Shown: piece by piece, positions 50,067 through 60,364 of the stretch
Layout of the letters: each line of letters opens with the position of its first letter
How positions within the stretch are numbered: position 1 is the stretch's first letter
From: Escherichia coli
GTDB lineage: Bacteria > Pseudomonadota > Gammaproteobacteria > Enterobacterales > Enterobacteriaceae
Direction: 5' to 3' (one strand)
DNA length: 64,000 nucleotides
Assembly: GCF_024502345.1 (NCBI RefSeq)
Contig: NZ_JALDNN010000001.1
Made by a program: the position numbers and the translations under genes
Notes under the pieces: generated by a model
Told to the model about the DNA's origin: nothing
Seen by the model: only the letters and a program-made list of their open reading frames with translations
Databases searched by the model: none

Positions 50067-50696
50067 ATGATTCGGGTAGTGCTGGTGGATGACCATGTGG
50101 TGGTGCGCTCTGGCTTCGCACAATTACTCTCTCTGGAAGACGATCTGGAGGTCATTGGTCAGTACAGTAGTGCCGCGCAGGCATGGTCGGCATTAATCCG
50201 TGATGACGTCAATGTTGCCGTCATTGATATTGCCATGCCGGACGAAAACGGCCTCAGTTTGCTTAAGCGCCTGCGTGCACAAAAACCGCAATTTCGCGCC
50301 ATTATTCTTAGCATTTATGACGCGCCAACCTTTGTGCAAAGCGCGCTGGATGCCGGTGCCAGCGGGTATTTAACCAAACGCTGTGGGCCGGAAGAGTTAG
50401 TACAGGCGGTGCGCTCGGTCGGGCTGGGCGGGCATTATCTCTGTGCCGATGCGATTCGGGCTTTACGCGGCGGCGGGCAACCCGCCCAGGCGCTGGAAAT
50501 TCTCACCCCACGAGAACGTGAAGTGTTTGATTTACTGGTCAAAGGAGACAGCGTTAAAGAGATCGCCTTTAAACTCGAACTCAGTCATAAAACGGTACAT
50601 GTGCATCGCGCCAATGTGCTGGGAAAACTGAACTGCCATAGCACCATTGAACTGGTACATTTTGCGCTCGACCACCATCTGCTGGCGGGGCATTAA
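50067..50696 (+). CDS. UhpA-like response regulator (NarL/FixJ family, LuxR-type HTH)
   Basis: Track ORF 209 aa, MIRVVLVDDHVVVRSGFAQLL...; receiver domain with DD..D and C-terminal HTH (KEIAFKLELSHKTVHVHRANVLGKL); aligns along its length with recalled UhpA. Confidence 0.85.
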   Translation: MIRVVLVDDHVVVRSGFAQLLSLEDDLEVIGQYSSAAQAWSALIRDDVNVAVIDIAMPDENGLSLLKRLRAQKPQFRAIILSIYDAPTFVQSALDAGASGYLTKRCGPEELVQAVRSVGLGGHYLCADAIRALRGGGQPAQALEILTPREREVFDLLVKGDSVKEIAFKLELSHKTVHVHRANVLGKLNCHSTIELVHFALDHHLLAGH

Positions 50697-52237
50697 TGTC
50701 GCGCAATCTTCGTCATTGGGTGATTTCGCTGTTTATTGTGCTGGCCTGGGGAACCGGCTGGCTGATGCTGTGGACGCTCAGCTTTTATCTGACCAATAAC
50801 GGTCAACAGGCGGTGTTGTTTCTCCCGCAGGGAGTTTATCTCGCCCTTGTTATTTTGCTCTCTCGCCGCTACTGGCCTGCGTTGGTGCTCCCCCCTTTGC
50901 TGATGATGTTCTGGCTCCATAGTGAACAGCTATTGAACGGTTATCTCATGCTGGCAACGCCGGTTATTAGCCTGTTTCCTGTCCTCCTTGCGCAAAACTT
51001 CTGGCACCGTTTTCCACTTTACTGGCAGCGTCTGACGTTGCTGTTAGCCACTGTCACGGCAGCTTCATTGTTGAATACCGCCCTGCTCTCCCCTTTTATG
51101 TCAGGCCCAATAATGCTGCCGGGTTTGACCTCATTTACCGGCGGCGTATTACTGACGCCGTTTGTCTATCTTATCTTTGAGTTTCTGCGCCAGCAGCATC
51201 GCTACCAGCTCCTGGGACTCGATACGCATAATCCCCCCTTGCGTACCTCTTTAATCATCTGGTGTAGCCTGTTTTTTATTATTGGTATCGGCACTCAGAT
51301 GGTGCTGTCACCTGAAATTGAACGTCTGCTGTTGATCGTGGTCTTTTTGCCCAATGTGGTGATGGCGTGGAAATTTGGCTGGCAAGGTGGCGTACTCTCC
51401 GGGCTTTTGGGCAGCATGATGATCACCATCGCCCGCCAGATTGGCGTGGGCTTTAGTAACCTGGTGGAGCTGGAGATTTTCCTCGCGACCCAGGCCTTGC
51501 TGGGAATTGGCCTGGGCATTGCCATCAGTCGCCAGCAACATCTGGCGCTAAACCTGCACCATTACCGACAACGGCTGGAGGCCGAGCTGGCAGCGCGGCG
51601 GGCATTGGCGGAAAAGCTGATCCACACCGAGGAGGACACGCGAAAAAACCTGGCGCGAGAGCTGCACGACGAAATCGGTCAGAACATCACCGCCATTCAG
51701 ATCCAGTCGCAACTGGTGAAGCGGGCGCGTGATCCGGCGCAAATTCAATCCGCAGCCAGCCAAATCAATGAGCTCGCCCGCCGCATTCATCTCTCCACCC
51801 GCCAATTGCTGCGCCAGTTGCGGCCTCCCGCGCTTGATGAACTGACATTTCGCGAAGCGTTGCTGCATCTGATTAATGAATTTGCCTTTAGTGAACGCGG
51901 CATTCATTGCCAGTTTGCCTATCAACTGAACTCCACACCAGAAAACGAAACGGTGCGCTTTACCTTGTATCGGTTATTGCAGGAGTTGCTCAATAACATC
52001 TGTAAACACGCCGAAGCCAGCGAAGTGACGATTATCCTGCGCCAGCAGGGAGAGGTATTGCATCTGGAAGTCAGCGACAACGGTGTGGGGATCGCCAGCG
52101 GGAAAATGGCCGGATTTGGCATTCAGGGGATGCGTGAGCGCGTCAGCGCCCTGGGCGGCGACTTAACGCTCGAAAAACAGCACGGCACGCGGGTAATTGT
52201 TAACTTGCCCACATTTTTGCAACAAATCGCCGGATAA
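50696..52237 (+). CDS. UhpB-like sensor histidine kinase (MASE1-type membrane domain, HisKA_3, HATPase)
   Basis: Track ORF 513 aa; multiple N-terminal TM helices, H-box ELHDEIGQNITAI, ATP-binding region; start overlaps the stop of the upstream regulator. Confidence 0.85.
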   Translation: MSRNLRHWVISLFIVLAWGTGWLMLWTLSFYLTNNGQQAVLFLPQGVYLALVILLSRRYWPALVLPPLLMMFWLHSEQLLNGYLMLATPVISLFPVLLAQNFWHRFPLYWQRLTLLLATVTAASLLNTALLSPFMSGPIMLPGLTSFTGGVLLTPFVYLIFEFLRQQHRYQLLGLDTHNPPLRTSLIIWCSLFFIIGIGTQMVLSPEIERLLLIVVFLPNVVMAWKFGWQGGVLSGLLGSMMITIARQIGVGFSNLVELEIFLATQALLGIGLGIAISRQQHLALNLHHYRQRLEAELAARRALAEKLIHTEEDTRKNLARELHDEIGQNITAIQIQSQLVKRARDPAQIQSAASQINELARRIHLSTRQLLRQLRPPALDELTFREALLHLINEFAFSERGIHCQFAYQLNSTPENETVRFTLYRLLQELLNNICKHAEASEVTIILRQQGEVLHLEVSDNGVGIASGKMAGFGIQGMRERVSALGGDLTLEKQHGTRVIVNLPTFLQQIAG

Positions 52238-52309
52238 CCAGGAAAAAGTCTTAGGTATCCCGGATTTTCTCTCATCCCCTTTCACTTTCATTTTCATATA
52301 GTCAGCAAC

Positions 52310-53626
52310 ATGGAGACAACCATGCACGCGCGTTCAGCGAGAGAAATTAATCAATGCTACCGGACATTACGTCCGCGATTGCTGATGTGCATGATTATTG
52401 GCTACGCCGCATTTTATCTGACGCGAAAAAGCGTGAATTACGTCCTTCCGGCGCTACAAACCGACCTCGGACTGGATAAAGGCGACATTGGCCTGCTGGG
52501 TTCGCTGTTTTATCTCAGCTACGGATTGTCGAAATTTACCGCCGGACTGTGGCATGACAGCCATGGACAACGCGGTTTTATGGGCGTCGGCTTGTTCGCC
52601 ACCGGGTTATTGAACGTGGTGTTTGCCTTTGGCGAATCACTTACGCTTCTGCTTGTGGTCTGGACACTGAACGGTTTTTTTCAGGGCTGGGGATGGCCAC
52701 CGTGTGCCCGCTTGCTGACCCACTGGTACTCACGCAATGAGCGCGGTTTCTGGTGGGGCTGCTGGAATATGTCGATCAACATTGGCGGAGCGATTATTCC
52801 GCTGATTAGCGCCTTTGCCGCCCACTGGTGGGGCTGGCAGGCCGCGATGCTGACACCGGGGATAATCAGCATGGCATTAGGGATCTGGTTAACGCTACAA
52901 CTCAAAGGCACGCCCCAGGAAGAGGGATTACCGACAGTTGGTCACTGGCGTCACGATCCGCTGGAGTTACGTCAGGAACAACAAAGTCCGCCGATGGGGC
53001 TGTGGCAAATGTTGCGCACCACCATGCTGCAAAATCCGCTGATCTGGCTACTGGGCGTCTCTTATGTACTGGTTTATGTGATCCGGATTGCGCTTAACGA
53101 CTGGGGCAATATCTGGCTGACGGAAAGCCACGGTGTCAACCTGCTCAGCGCCAACGCCACGGTAATGCTGTTTGAAGTGGGCGGCTTACTCGGCGCGTTA
53201 TTTGCCGGATGGGGATCGGATTTGCTGTTTAGCGGGCAACGAGCGCCAATGATTTTGCTGTTCACGTTGGGGTTGATGGTGTCAGTCGCCGCACTGTGGC
53301 TGGCACCGGTTCATCACTACGCTCTGCTGGCAGTGTGCTTTTTTACCGTGGGCTTTTTCGTCTTTGGCCCACAAATGCTGATTGGACTTGCGGCGGTGGA
53401 GTGTGGGCACAAAGCTGCGGCGGGTTCAATCACCGGATTTCTCGGCCTGTTCGCTTACCTTGGCGCGGCGCTGGCAGGCTGGCCGCTGTCGCTGGTCATC
53501 GAACGCTACGGCTGGCCGGGAATGTTCAGTTTACTCTCGGTCGCCGCAGTACTTATGGGTTTACTGCTGATGCCGTTACTGATGGCGGGCATCACCACCA
53601 CTCACGCTCGAAGGATAAAACAATGA
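52310..53626 (+). CDS. UhpC-like MFS membrane protein (putative sugar-phosphate sensor)
   Basis: Track ORF 438 aa; organophosphate:Pi antiporter-type MFS motifs (YLTRKS, FFQGWGWPPCARLLTHWYS), similar in length and sequence to recalled UhpC. Confidence 0.8.
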   Translation: METTMHARSAREINQCYRTLRPRLLMCMIIGYAAFYLTRKSVNYVLPALQTDLGLDKGDIGLLGSLFYLSYGLSKFTAGLWHDSHGQRGFMGVGLFATGLLNVVFAFGESLTLLLVVWTLNGFFQGWGWPPCARLLTHWYSRNERGFWWGCWNMSINIGGAIIPLISAFAAHWWGWQAAMLTPGIISMALGIWLTLQLKGTPQEEGLPTVGHWRHDPLELRQEQQSPPMGLWQMLRTTMLQNPLIWLLGVSYVLVYVIRIALNDWGNIWLTESHGVNLLSANATVMLFEVGGLLGALFAGWGSDLLFSGQRAPMILLFTLGLMVSVAALWLAPVHHYALLAVCFFTVGFFVFGPQMLIGLAAVECGHKAAAGSITGFLGLFAYLGAALAGWPLSLVIERYGWPGMFSLLSVAAVLMGLLLMPLLMAGITTTHARRIKQ

Positions 53627-54654
53627 AAATGACCTTTACCTCTACTCTGATTGCTTCTGCCGTTGCGCTGGCGACTTTAACGGGTGCCGCGCAGGCAAAA
53701 GGCCGGCTGGTGGTCTATTGCAGCGCCACCAATGAAATGTGTGAGGCCGAAACCAAAGCGTTTGGCGAGAAATATGATGTAAAAACCTCGTTTATCCGCA
53801 ACGGTTCCGGAAGCACCCTGGCAAAAGTCGATGCTGAAAAGAAAAACCCCCAGGCTGACGTCTGGTACGGCGGCACTTTAGACCCGCAATCGCAGGCTGG
53901 CGAGATGGGCCTGCTACAGGCGTATAAATCCCCTAACCTTGAGCAGATCATGGAGAAATTCCGCGATCCGGCAAAAGTGAAAGGGAATCTGTCCTCTGCC
54001 GTTTATGTGGGGATCCTCGGTTTTGGCGTAAACACCGATCGTCTGAAAGAGAAAAACCTGCCGGTGCCGAAGTGCTGGAAAGATCTCACCAAACCGGAAT
54101 ATAAAGGCGAAATTCAAATTGCCGATCCGCAAAGTTCCGGTACTGCCTACACCGCCCTGGCTACTTTTGCGCAGCTGTGGGGGGAAGATCAGGCCTTTGA
54201 TTATCTAAAACAACTGAACGCCAACGTCTCTCAGTACACCAAATCAGGCATAGCCCCGGCACGTAACGCCGCCCGTGGCGAAACGGCGATTGGTATTGGC
54301 TTCCTGCATGACTACTCGCTGGAAAAAGAACAGGGCGCGCCGCTGGAGTTGATTTCCCCGTGTGAAGGTACGGGCTACGAAATTGGCGGCGTCAGCATTC
54401 TGAAAGGCGCGCGCAACCTCGACAACGCCAAACTGTTTGTGGACTGGGTATTATCAAAAGAAGCTCAGGAACTGGCGTGGAAGAAAGGGAAGTCTTATCA
54501 GATCCTGACCAATACCACCGCCGAAACGTCGCCAAATTCGCTGAAGCTCGACGACCTGAAATTAATCAACTACGACATGGATAAATATGGTTCCACGGAT
54601 GTTCGTAAGGCATTGATTAATAAATGGGTCAGCGAAGTGAAGATGGGTAAATAA
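53623..54654 (+). CDS. afuA: AfuA/FbpA-type periplasmic substrate-binding protein of an ABC importer
   Basis: In-frame ATG at 53623 within track ORF 53296..54654 gives 343 aa with signal peptide MKMTFTSTLIASAVALATLTGAAQA; ATG overlaps the stop of the UhpC-like gene (ATGA). Confidence 0.8.
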   Translation: MKMTFTSTLIASAVALATLTGAAQAKGRLVVYCSATNEMCEAETKAFGEKYDVKTSFIRNGSGSTLAKVDAEKKNPQADVWYGGTLDPQSQAGEMGLLQAYKSPNLEQIMEKFRDPAKVKGNLSSAVYVGILGFGVNTDRLKEKNLPVPKCWKDLTKPEYKGEIQIADPQSSGTAYTALATFAQLWGEDQAFDYLKQLNANVSQYTKSGIAPARNAARGETAIGIGFLHDYSLEKEQGAPLELISPCEGTGYEIGGVSILKGARNLDNAKLFVDWVLSKEAQELAWKKGKSYQILTNTTAETSPNSLKLDDLKLINYDMDKYGSTDVRKALINKWVSEVKMGK

Positions 54655-54722
54655 ACCCGCATTAGGCGTATTTGCCGGGTGCAGCACAAACGCCTGCCCC
54701 GGCCAACCATACCGGAACTACT

Positions 54723-56801
54723 ATGTCACAGACACTTGCACTCCATCCCGTGAAAAAGCGGGATGCGATTTTCCTTTGGGTTTTACTGGGCTGGCTGGCA
54801 TTTATACTGTTGCCGAGCTGGAGCCTCGATTATGGCCTGCTGGAGTCCACGAGTGATGAGATCCTCGAGGCTTATGGCTGGTCGCATTTTAATATCAGCT
54901 GGCTGTGGTATTTACTCCCGAGCCTGTTGCTGGTTCGCCCGTTTCGTGAGGCCACGCGCGAACAGCGTAGTCGTCATTATTTTGATGCCAGCTGGGCATT
55001 GCTCTGTATGGCGTTTATCGTCATCAGCGCCACCGTGGCTGGACGCGGTTTAGGCTACGCCGCCATCGTGCTGTTTGTTGAACTAGGCGCGATTATGACG
55101 CTGGCCTTAACCCGCCTCGAATGGCTGGGCGGCGACCGCTTCGTGATCGGCTCACTGATTGCGATTGTGGCGCTGATTGGCATTTTTATCGTCTGGCCGA
55201 GCATCGCCATTTTTATCCCGATGTTCACCAACGACGCGGGAGAGTTCGCCCCGCTGGCGTTTATGACCGTGCTCTCGCAGGCACATATTGTTCAGGTGAT
55301 CGTCAACTCTATCGTCTTGTCGATAGCGGTGGGGATAGGCTGTACTTTCTTCGGCCTGGTGCTGGCGATTTATACCACGCGCATCGCTAAACGCAGCGCC
55401 ATTATTGGTCGCATCTTTTCCATTTTGCCCATCGTTACGCCACCGTTTGTGGTCGGCTTAGGCGTGACGCTCATGATGGGGCGCTCCGGCTATGTTACGG
55501 AATTTATGGTGGAGTGGTTTGGGCTGACCAACACCAACTGGCTGTACGGTTTTACCGGGATCTGGCTGGCACAGGTTCTGGCATTCACGCCAATGGCATT
55601 TATGATCCTCGACGGGGCCATTAAAACCATTCATCCCTCGCTGGAAGAGGCCTCCTACACCCTGCGCGCCAGCCGCTGGCAAACCTTTAACGGCGTGTTT
55701 GTGCCGTTGTTGAAGCCCGCACTCGCCAATGCCTTTTTAATCGTCGTGGTACAGTCACTGGCTGATTTCAGTAACCCGCTGGTACTTGGCGGTAACTTCG
55801 ACGTACTGGCGACGCAAATTTACTTCTATATTACCGGCTCGCAGCTGGATTATCAGGCCGCCAGCACGCTTGGCGCTTTCCTGCTGCTGTTCTCGCTGCT
55901 GGTGTTCTGCATCCAGTATATGTGGATTGGTAAACGCTCTTACGTCACGGTTTCCGGCAAATCCTACCGTGGCGACGTCCAGCCGCTACCGGTCACCCTG
56001 GTGTGGAGCGTGGTCGCCATACTTGCGATATGGATTGCCTTTAACGCCCTGCTCTACGGCAGCATTTTCTACGGCAGCTTCACGGTGAACTGGGGCGTGG
56101 ACTACACCCTGACGCTGGATAACTTTATCAAGCTATTTGGTCAGGGAATGAGCGACGGCGCGTGGCCTTCACTGCTGGATACCCTGCTCTACGCCGGGAT
56201 TGCCGCTCCCATTACCGCTATCTTTGGCCTGCTCATCGCCTGGGTGGTGGTGCGTCAACAATTCAAAGGCAAAAAGACCATCGAGTTCACCACCATGCTG
56301 TGCTTTGCCGTACCGGGTACGGTGGCGGGCGTTTCGTATATTCTTGCCTTTAACAGCGCTCCGGTTTATCTCACCGGAACGGCGGCAATTGTGATTATCT
56401 CGATGGTGATGCGTAACGTTCCGGTGGGTATTCGCGCCGGGATTGCGGGTCTGGGGCAGATCGACAAATCGCTGGATGAAGCCTCACTCAGCCTGCGCGC
56501 GGGTTCCTTGCGAACCATAACCCACATTTTACTGCCGCTGCTGCGTCCGGCCATTCTCTCGGCCCTGATCTACAGCTTTGTGCGGGCCATCACGACGGTC
56601 AGCGCCATCGTCTTTCTCGTCACGCCGGACACCCGCGTGGCAACCGCCTACATTCTTAACCGCGTTGAAGACGGCGAATATGGCGTAGCCATCGCCTATG
56701 GTTCGATTCTGATCGTGGTGATGCTGGCGATTATTTTCCTCTTTGACTGGCTGATCGGAGAAGCTCGTATCTCCCGTTCTAAAGCCAAAAACAAGGCGTA
56801 A
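54723..56801 (+). CDS. afuB: AfuB/FbpB-type ABC permease with two fused transmembrane domains
   Basis: Track ORF 54672..56801 starts at a TTG; first ATG at 54723 (MSQTLALHP...) gives about 692 aa; duplicated ABC permease modules; the alternative start at 54672 cannot be excluded. Confidence 0.8.
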
Positions 56802-57859
56802 TGGAGCGCACTATGAGTCAGAAAAATTTTGTTGAACTGCGCAACGTCACTAAACGATTCGGCAGTAATACGGTTATCGACAATATCAATCTCACCATTC
56901 CACAAGGGCAAATGGTGACGCTGCTCGGTCCTTCCGGCTGTGGCAAAACCACCATTTTGCGTCTGGTTGCCGGGCTGGAAAAACCGAGCGAAGGGCAAAT
57001 TTTTATTGATGGCGAAGATGTCACGCATCGTTCCATTCAACAGCGCGATATCTGCATGGTGTTTCAGTCATACGCTCTGTTCCCGCATATGTCGCTGGGT
57101 GAAAACGTTGGCTACGGGCTGAAGATGCTTGGCGTCTCGCGTAGCGAAGTGAAACAGCGGGTGAAGGAGGCGCTGGCAATGGTGGATCTGGAAGGCTTCG
57201 AGGACCGCTATGTCGATCAGATTTCCGGTGGTCAGCAACAGCGTGTGGCACTGGCCCGCGCGTTGATCCTCAAGCCAAAGGTGCTGCTGTTTGATGAGCC
57301 GTTAAGTAACCTCGATGCCAACCTGCGCCGCAGTATGCGCGATAAGATCCGCGAGCTGCAAAAGCAGTTTAATATCACGTCGCTCTACGTCACTCACGAT
57401 CAAAGTGAAGCTTTCGCGGTGTCCGACACTGTGCTGGTGATGAATAAAGGTCACATCATGCAGATTGGCTCACCGCAGGATCTCTATCGTCAGCCAGCCT
57501 CCCGATTTATGGCAAGTTTTATGGGCGACGCCAACCTGTTCCCGGCGAACTTTAGCGAAGAGTATGTCGATATCTACGGTTATCGCCTGCCGCGCGCGGC
57601 GCATTTCCCGGCGCAAGGTAGCGGCACCGTCGGCGTTCGCCCGGAAGCCATCACCTTAAGCAATCACGGCGAAGAGAGTCAGCGTTGTGTTATTCGCCAT
57701 GTCGCCTACATGGGGCCGCAGTACGAAGTGACCGTAGAGTGGCATGGACAGGAGATTTTATTACAAGTAAACGCCACCCGTTTACAGCCCGATATTGGTG
57801 AGCACTATTACCTCGAAATCCATCCTTACGGGATGTTTGTTTTAGCGGATACGGCATAA
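56801..57859 (+). CDS. afuC: AfuC/FbpC-type ABC transporter ATP-binding protein
   Basis: Track ORF 352 aa; Walker [10 protein letters not shown], signature [14 protein letters not shown], Walker [11 protein letters not shown]-terminal TOBE-like regulatory domain; ATG overlaps the afuB stop (TAATG); a start at 56813 with a GGAG RBS is also possible. Confidence 0.85.
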
Positions 57860-57873
57860 AAATAGCACATAAA

Positions 57874-57900
57874 CGGTCCCCATCTGTCTTGAGGGACCGT
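57874..57900 (+). terminator. possible terminator hairpin after afuC
   Basis: GGTCCC-N12-GGGACC stem-loop 15 bp after the afuC stop; no strong T-tract. Confidence 0.4.
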
Positions 57901-57943
57901 TCACCTGGTTAGGCTTCGGACAACAATTATTCTCCAGTGTTAT

Positions 57944-57992
57944 ATACTATAGGGGGGTATGTATTGACATATAGCATACCCCCCTATAGTAT
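57944..57992 (+). promoter_or_regulatory. frmRAB promoter/operator: long inverted repeat with G6/C6 tracts
   Basis: ATACTATAGGGGGGTATG-(12 bp with TTGACA)-CATACCCCCCTATAGTAT, near-perfect 18-bp arms 27 bp upstream of the frmR ATG; matches the TACT-G6-N-AGTA type RcnR/FrmR operator. Confidence 0.75.
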
Positions 57993-58018
57993 ATTGCGTG
58001 CAGATGATGAGGTGCGAA

Positions 58019-58294
58019 ATGCCCAGTACTCCGGAAGAGAAGAAAAAGGTCCTTACTCGAGTTCGTCGTATTCGGGGGCAGATTGATGCTCTGGAACGGT
58101 CGCTGGAGGGTGATGCCGAATGCCGTGCCATACTCCAACAGATCGCTGCCGTTCGGGGCGCGGCTAACGGGCTGATGGCAGAAGTGCTTGAAAGCCATAT
58201 CCGGGAAACGTTTGACCGAAATGACTGCTACAGCCGCGAAGTCAGCCAATCCGTTGACGACACTATTGAACTGGTTCGAGCCTATCTTAAATAG
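58019..58294 (+). CDS. frmR: formaldehyde-responsive repressor FrmR (CsoR/RcnR family)
   Basis: Track ORF 57998..58294; recognised N-terminus [31 protein letters not shown] gives 91 aa. Confidence 0.9.
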
Positions 58295-58298
58295 CTGA

Positions 58299-59438
<1,140 letters not shown>

Positions 59439-59530: not shown

Positions 59531-60364
59531 ATGGAACTCATTGAAAAACATGCCAGCTTTGGCGGCTGGCAAAATGTGTATCGGCATTATTCCGCATCAC
59601 TGAAATGTGAAATGAATGTCGGCGTCTATCTCCCACCAAAAGCTGCAGGTGAAAAATTACCGGTGCTGTACTGGCTTTCGGGCCTGACCTGCAATGAGCA
59701 GAATTTCATTACTAAATCGGGGGTGCAGCGTTACGCGGCTGAGCACAACATTATTGTTGTTGCGCCGGATACCAGTCCGCGAGGCAGTCATGTCGCAGAT
59801 GCAGACCGTTACGATCTCGGGCAAGGTGCCGGGTTTTACCTGAACGCGACGCAAGCGCCGTGGAATGAACATTACAAAATGTATGACTATATCCGCAACG
59901 AGCTGCCGGATTTAGTGATGCATCATTTTCCGGCAACGGCCAAAAAGTCTATCTCTGGTCATTCTATGGGCGGGCTGGGCGCGCTGGTGCTGGCGTTACG
60001 TAACCCAGATGAATATGCCAGCGTCTCGGCGTTTTCGCCCATTGTCTCCCCATCGCAAGTACCGTGGGGACAGCAAGCCTTTGCTGCATATCTTGGTGAA
60101 AATAAAGATGCCTGGTTGTATTACGACCCGGTGAGTCTTATTTCACAAGGTCAACGCGTTGCGGAAATAATGGTTGATCAGGGGTTGAGTGATGATTTTT
60201 ACGCGGAACAGCTGCGGACTCCAAATCTTGAAAAGATCTGCCAGGAGATGAATATCAAGACGTTAATCCGTTATCACGAGGGTTACGACCACAGCTATTA
60301 TTTTGTCTCCAGTTTTATTGGCGAGCATATTGCCTACCACGCCAATAAACTGAATATGCGTTGA
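59531..60364 (+). CDS. frmB: S-formylglutathione hydrolase
   Basis: Track ORF 277 aa; esterase D family, GHSMGG serine-hydrolase motif. Confidence 0.95.
   Translation: MELIEKHASFGGWQNVYRHYSASLKCEMNVGVYLPPKAAGEKLPVLYWLSGLTCNEQNFITKSGVQRYAAEHNIIVVAPDTSPRGSHVADADRYDLGQGAGFYLNATQAPWNEHYKMYDYIRNELPDLVMHHFPATAKKSISGHSMGGLGALVLALRNPDEYASVSAFSPIVSPSQVPWGQQAFAAYLGENKDAWLYYDPVSLISQGQRVAEIMVDQGLSDDFYAEQLRTPNLEKICQEMNIKTLIRYHEGYDHSYYFVSSFIGEHIAYHANKLNMR

Follow-up and report, generated by a model that had tools for sequence, protein, structure and literature searches.

The palindrome upstream of frmRAB in an Escherichia coli strain is the FrmR operator of Pfrm

The palindrome, its two FrmR sites and the promoter

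In the 64-kb stretch of E. coli DNA analysed here (the window), a long perfect palindrome lies immediately upstream of the frmR gene. It is the already described FrmR operator of the Pfrm promoter, and as such it is known. Very probably it serves frmRAB, an autoregulated operon, as its operator-promoter: the palindrome is formed by two 17-bp FrmR sites, the repressor bound to them blocks the polymerase, and formaldehyde releases it. For K-12, binding, release by formaldehyde and repression in vitro are established in the literature. For the system in the window, the evidence consists of sequence identity to K-12, of overlap with the promoter, and of a site strongly conserved among frmR orthologues.

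Using a repeat finder, we found two unstranded arms of 20 nt each, the left one at 57942-57961 (ATATACTATAGGGGGGTATG) and the right one at 57975-57994 (CATACCCCCCTATAGTATAT). They are 100% complementary and are separated by 13 nt (57962-57974, TATTGACATATAG), with TTGACA inside this spacer at 57964-57969. An earlier note on this DNA had described a near-perfect 18-bp inverted repeat. The sequences ATACTATAGGGGGGTATG (57944-57961) and CATACCCCCCTATAGTAT (57975-57992) are indeed present and are exact reverse complements of each other, so that the repeat itself stands; its size and quality were underestimated, since it is perfect and extends 2 bp further at each outer end. The G6 and C6 tracts that the note had reported are located at 57952-57957 and 57979-57984. 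Among perfect inverted repeats with a spacer of up to 40 nt, this is the longest in the window, and the runner-up has arms of 13 nt. In 20 dinucleotide-preserving shuffles of the window the longest repeats had arms of 9-13 nt; analytically, 2.4e-6 perfect repeats of 20 nt are expected. The palindrome is thus far beyond chance.

Denby et al. (2016; Sci Rep 6:38879, Fig. 6a; PMC5146963) described K-12 Pfrm with a large inverted repeat centred at -29, which holds tandem type I FrmR sites with ATAC/GTAT flanks, that is, ATAC-N9-GTAT. A type I operator is defined as a G/C tract of 3-8 bp flanked by an AT-rich inverted repeat (PMC5146963). A motif search of the window gave just two matches to ATAC-N9-GTAT, neither assigned to a strand, and no further FrmR-type sites besides this frm pair. 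The distal type I site, ATAC-TATAGGGGG-GTAT, occupies positions 57944-57960, and its K-12 counterpart was defined in the 2016 paper. The proximal site, ATAC-CCCCCTATA-GTAT, occupies positions 57976-57992 and has a counterpart upstream of nearly all frmR orthologues. The two sites have opposite polarity, and their centres (57952 and 57984) are 32 bp, or about three helical turns, apart. The published centre-to-centre distance is 31 bp (PMC5146963), as against the 32 bp counted from the sequence. In the window, each G/C tract is within the 3-8 bp range and is flanked by ATAC...GTAT. The sites are at a promoter, where they overlap the -35/-10 consensus, and belong to an operon with a cognate PF02583 (DUF156) regulator. 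Two ATAC-N9-GTAT sites in a large inverted repeat upstream of frmRAB is also the arrangement that characterizes the E. coli Pfrm operator.

By the consensus scan only, the -35 hexamer is the TTGACA of the spacer (57964-57969, plus strand). The same scan places the -10 hexamer TAGTAT at 57987-57992 on the plus strand, within the proximal site and the right arm; the pair has a spacing of 17 bp and 10/12 matches. The idea that the repeat embraces the frmR -35 element is therefore right as regards the bracketing. It is incomplete, since the scan pairs TTGACA with TAGTAT and the right arm thus carries the -10 element too. From the -29 centre given by Denby et al. and the coordinates of the repeat, transcription is predicted to start at 57997 on the plus strand. 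The centre of the palindrome (57968) and the end of the -10 hexamer (57992) are compatible with a start near this position.

All three genes of the operon are on the plus strand: frmR (58019-58294, ATG start, 91 aa), frmA for S-(hydroxymethyl)glutathione dehydrogenase (58329-59438) and frmB/fghA for S-formylglutathione hydrolase (59531-60364). Downstream of frmB, yaiL and mhpT follow on the minus strand. The frmR product is 100% identical over 91 residues to PDB 5LBM, the crystal structure of the E. coli "Transcriptional repressor FrmR". Because this identity covers the full length of the crystallised protein, the start of frmR is the ATG at 58019, 25 bp past the right arm, and not the mechanically listed GTG at 57998. 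The product matches Pfam PF02583 (E = 3.3e-23) and scores 189 bits with the NCBIfam FrmR equivalog, for which the cut-off is 133. The PF02583 match and the identity to 5LBM agree with the assignment of FrmR to the CsoR/RcnR family made earlier. Both sensor residues, Pro2 and Cys35, are present in the FrmR of the window (...GDAEC(35)).

In the proposed mechanism, the two inverted FrmR sites with their G6/C6 tracts bracket the -35 element, and the proximal one overlaps the -10 element. Because of this position, FrmR tetramers bound to the frm sites would occlude the promoter and block RNA polymerase. Formaldehyde would cross-link Pro2 to Cys35 between FrmR subunits and remodel the DNA-binding surface; FrmR would then leave the DNA, and frmR, frmA and frmB would be de-repressed. 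For the K-12 system, a Kd of ~220 nM on Pfrm compared to ~3600 nM on unrelated DNA was reported, formaldehyde abolishes the binding of FrmR to Pfrm, FrmR represses transcription in vitro and formaldehyde relieves this repression, and a Pro2-Cys35 methylene bridge was reported as the mechanism (all PMC5146963). We infer that one tetramer occupies each site, as well as which bases are contacted. Denby et al. raised the alternative of a single tetramer bridging both sites (PMC5146963). In Salmonella, two FrmR tetramers bind the operator, and mutating one of its T/A-rich flanks abolishes FrmR binding (Osman 2015/2016; PMC4528141, PMC5016687); this stoichiometry was measured on an operator with one C6 tract and not on that of E. 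coli. The frmRA operator of Salmonella Typhimurium is like that of the window in its C6 tract, its T/A-rich inverted-repeat flanks, the need for a flank in binding and its formaldehyde-responsive FrmR. However, it has a single tract where the window has two, its FrmR is only 52% identical to E. coli FrmR and polyphyletic with it, and its authors call the promoter sequences distinct. The reviews that cite mutagenesis and engineering work on Pfrm contain no base-level map of the promoter.

FrmR sites upstream of 80 frmR loci

We surveyed 80 frmR loci from Gamma-, Beta- and Alphaproteobacteria, scanning one genome per species. The range extends from Escherichia (100% protein identity) through other Enterobacterales, Aeromonas, Tatumella, Deefgea and Pasteurellaceae to the Beta- and Alphaproteobacteria and Xanthomonadales, where FrmR identity is 52-65%. 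The frmA gene is directly downstream of frmR in 76/80 loci. An exact ATAC-N9-GTAT was found no more than 120 bp upstream of frmR in 65 of the 80 loci, one site in 47 and two in 18. In total, these 9.6 kb of upstream sequence contain 83 sites; the remaining 244 kb of the loci has 3, so that the enrichment is ~700-fold. In a control window at -400..-280, 0/78 loci had a site. From 33 distinct proximal sites we derived the consensus ATACTCCCCnnnAGTAT, i.e. ATACT-CCCC-nnn-AGTAT, which has the TACT-N7-AGTA geometry of the two K-12 RcnR boxes. In all 33 orthologous sites the ATAC/GTAT flanks are invariant; position 5 is T in 26 and position 13 is A in 27. In this survey, the proximal ATACT-N7-AGTAT is nearly universal among the frmR-frmA units of Proteobacteria.

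The distal, inverted site is found mainly in orthologues from Enterobacterales, Aeromonas and Deefgea. The spacing in two-site loci is 32 bp (7 loci), 33 bp (1), 34 bp (8), 35 bp (1) or 23 bp (1). The G-tract precedes the C-tract in 14 loci, the order is reversed in 2, and in 2 the sites share the same polarity. Most of the Enterobacterales sequences with two sites have a TTGAC -35 element between them. Only 10/80 loci have a perfect inverted repeat of at least 12 nt upstream of frmR. What is conserved is thus a 17-bp protein-binding unit, and the long palindrome arises because two such units stand in opposite polarity. The G6 homopolymer is confined to Escherichia among the 80 loci; other genera carry, e.g., ATACTATAGTGGAGTAT.

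FrmR proteins of 84-91% identity are encoded by Edwardsiella anguillarum plasmid 1 and in Enterobacter, Aeromonas, Morganella and Maribrevibacterium. These loci mostly have a two-site operator of the ATACTATAGTGGAGTAT type. The occurrence of frmR on a plasmid and in scattered genera suggests that the frm unit may move horizontally together with its operator. In a Citrobacter MAG, Klebsiella grimontii and Maribrevibacterium, a frmR of ~91% identity stands without frmA within 1.5 kb downstream, and the distal site has a 10-bp core instead of a 9-bp one. The record of a 42.9-kb plasmid of E. coli strain 11 (NZ_CP195335.1) starts inside a frmR-like gene, annotated as "metal-sensing transcriptional repressor", which is followed by frmA; its identity to the window is 99%.

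Complementarity of the arms reaches past the 17-bp cores, to 20 nt in the window and 21 nt in the commonest allele of the sampled E. coli. In addition, the tracts co-vary in both arms: GGGGGG/CCCCCC in Escherichia compared to GTGGAG/CTCCAC in Edwardsiella, Enterobacter and Morganella. In two-site loci, identity of the N9 arms is 6.25/9 within a genome and 5.56/9 between genomes (permutation p = 0.0036, in a small and phylogenetically related sample). One could suppose from this that exact palindromy is itself maintained, beyond what two independent FrmR sites need, but we consider this improbable. The likeness of the arms could come from homogenisation by template switching or from a structural role (a bridging tetramer or a cruciform). 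Common descent, or a preference of the protein that both arms satisfy, would be as good an explanation.

It could also be proposed that the palindrome works as RNA, forming a hairpin (a terminator, a pause or a processing site) in read-through from the upstream gene and so insulating frmRAB. The RNA of 57930-58010 does fold to -39.8 kcal/mol (z = -6.0), and the upstream gene is co-directional both here (fbpC/afuC) and in K-12 (yaiO). However, no T/U run follows the stem on either strand, a terminator scan makes no call, and the predicted transcription start is downstream of the stem. Hairpin potential is not conserved either, with 47/80 promoters having a single site and only the 10 loci mentioned above a perfect repeat of at least 12 nt. 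In Erwinia the two sites have the same polarity, and therefore no long hairpin can form. Conservation is seen at the ATAC/GTAT flanks of the 17-bp units. We give this explanation very little weight. An intrinsic (Rho-independent) terminator, taken as a candidate of its own, was rejected: the G+C-rich stem is present, the T run is missing on both strands, and the hairpin is unconserved in orthologues.

K-12, operator alleles and the edge of the variable block

The comparison with K-12 that the earlier note had proposed was run, and MG1655 carries the palindrome upstream of frmR; a K-12 promoter lacking it, which the note had named as evidence against the operator, is thus not the case. The K-12 Pfrm operator is at the same locus and has both 17-bp cores (ATACTATAGGGGGGTAT and ATACCCCCCTATAGTAT), the -35 element in the spacer and an identical FrmR. 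Within the 53 bp of the palindrome, K-12 and the window differ by two SNPs only, at 57962 (C in K-12, T here) and 57975 (A in K-12, C here), both at the inner edge of the arms and outside the 17-bp cores. The gene next to frmR on the upstream side is also different, yaiO in K-12 and fbpC/afuC in the window. The two SNPs define three alleles. The window allele (T at 57962, C at 57975) gives a perfect palindrome of 20 nt. The K-12 allele (C and A) gives 19 nt, a mismatch and then 1 nt. The commonest allele among the sampled E. coli and other Escherichia (C and C) gives a perfect palindrome of 21 nt. Using megablast, we found the exact 65-bp window allele in 135/5426 complete E. coli genomes, one O157:H7 strain among them; this census is partly informative, as K-12-like alleles break the 28-base word and 1388 genomes gave no match.

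In E. coli isolate 12 (NZ_CM194533.1), the G6 tract has a G to A change and the C6 tract a C to A change, at the equivalents of window positions 57955 and 57984. A compensatory change was rejected, since these tract SNPs are not at mirror positions. They could reflect real decay of the operator or an assembly error.

The frmR region was matched in 5415/5426 complete E. coli genomes. In 450 genomes only, the fbpC side was also matched; all others start matching at window position 57927. Alignments with K-12, E. albertii, E. whittamii and two further Escherichia species place the junction, an unstranded feature, at 57917-57927, 15-25 bp left of the palindrome, with the shared Escherichia frm promoter sequence beginning here and the variable block lying to the left. 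The claim that the block boundary is within about 80 bp of the frm regulatory region is true and loose: the distance is 15-25 bp, and ~80 bp is the distance from the fbpC stop codon. In four sampled genomes without the block, yaiO is upstream of frmR, as in K-12.

The variable block itself (50067-57859) has genes for a UhpA-like response regulator, for a kinase and a receptor resembling UhpB and UhpC, respectively, and for an ABC transporter. The binding protein of the transporter matches the AfuA crystal structures 4R72-4R75 (E = 1.5e-169), and for this reason we identify the transporter, although it is annotated as "ferric", with the sugar-phosphate importer AfuABC (Sit et al. 2015, PMC4546632). 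The block neighbours frmR in 450/5426 E. coli genomes. Just past the afuC/fbpC stop codon there is another hairpin at 57872-57901 (ACGGTCCC...GGGACCGT), which has no T run and an unremarkable folding z of -1.4.

Such closeness of a palindrome to a junction could mean that it was a target of recombination or insertion (a cruciform or att-like site) and set the insertion point of the AfuABC block. Indeed, at least three unrelated Escherichia upstream contexts (the afuC block, yaiO and the E. albertii type) converge on CGGAnAA..TTATTCTCC at 57917-57927, 15-25 bp away. Nevertheless, the palindrome is intact in every context, the two junctions of the block have no 9-mers in common, neither junction contains repeats, and the block has no integrase or transposase in its annotation or ORFs. 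Purifying selection on a promoter unit beside a variable region accounts for the convergence equally well. A part for the palindrome in the insertion therefore seems most unlikely to us.

Likeness to the RcnR operator and significance

The architecture of the operator had been compared earlier with the TACT-G6-N-AGTA motif of the CsoR/RcnR family. The geometry agrees, but the literal motif does not. The RcnR box TACTGGGGGGNAGTA is absent, and the frm sites read TACT-ATAGGGG-GGTA and TACC-CCCCTAT-AGTA. Like the frm operator, the E. coli RcnR operator in the rcnR-rcnA intergenic region is of type I, has the TACT-N7-AGTA geometry, a G6-7 tract and two sites per promoter, and is served by a PF02583 regulator. 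The RcnR boxes of K-12 read TACTGGGGGGTAGTA and TACTGGGGGGGAGTA. They are direct repeats at a distance of 20 bp, whereas the frm pair is inverted, at a distance of 32 bp. In the RcnR boxes the tract fills the gap, and in the frm sites it is offset to one side by ATA/TAT. Each frm site has one half-site that is degenerate with respect to RcnR, and its conserved flank is one base longer (ATACT/AGTAT). In the window it is the inner half-site that deviates (GGTA, TACC), as the G6/C6 run continues into this half-site. With the same geometry and a different sequence, the frm sites are not RcnR boxes. The shared TACT-N7-AGTA geometry and G6 tract would speak for binding of the G6 boxes mainly by another protein of the CsoR/RcnR family, e.g., by RcnR in nickel/cobalt cross-regulation, but we see almost no chance of this. 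Each frm site has a mismatch in one half-site and a tract displaced by ATA, the frm promoter is reported to show no metal response in cells (PMC4528141), and the motif tracks frmR-frmA units, also in taxa sampled for frmR alone.

Thus, the palindrome is the operator of FrmR, and beyond annotation, in which this operator is now placed, it matters little. The survey of frmR loci adds modest detail, which may help engineers of Pfrm-based formaldehyde biosensors. The variable AfuABC block ends close to the frm regulatory unit but leaves it intact, so that this strain is expected to control its formaldehyde response as K-12 does.
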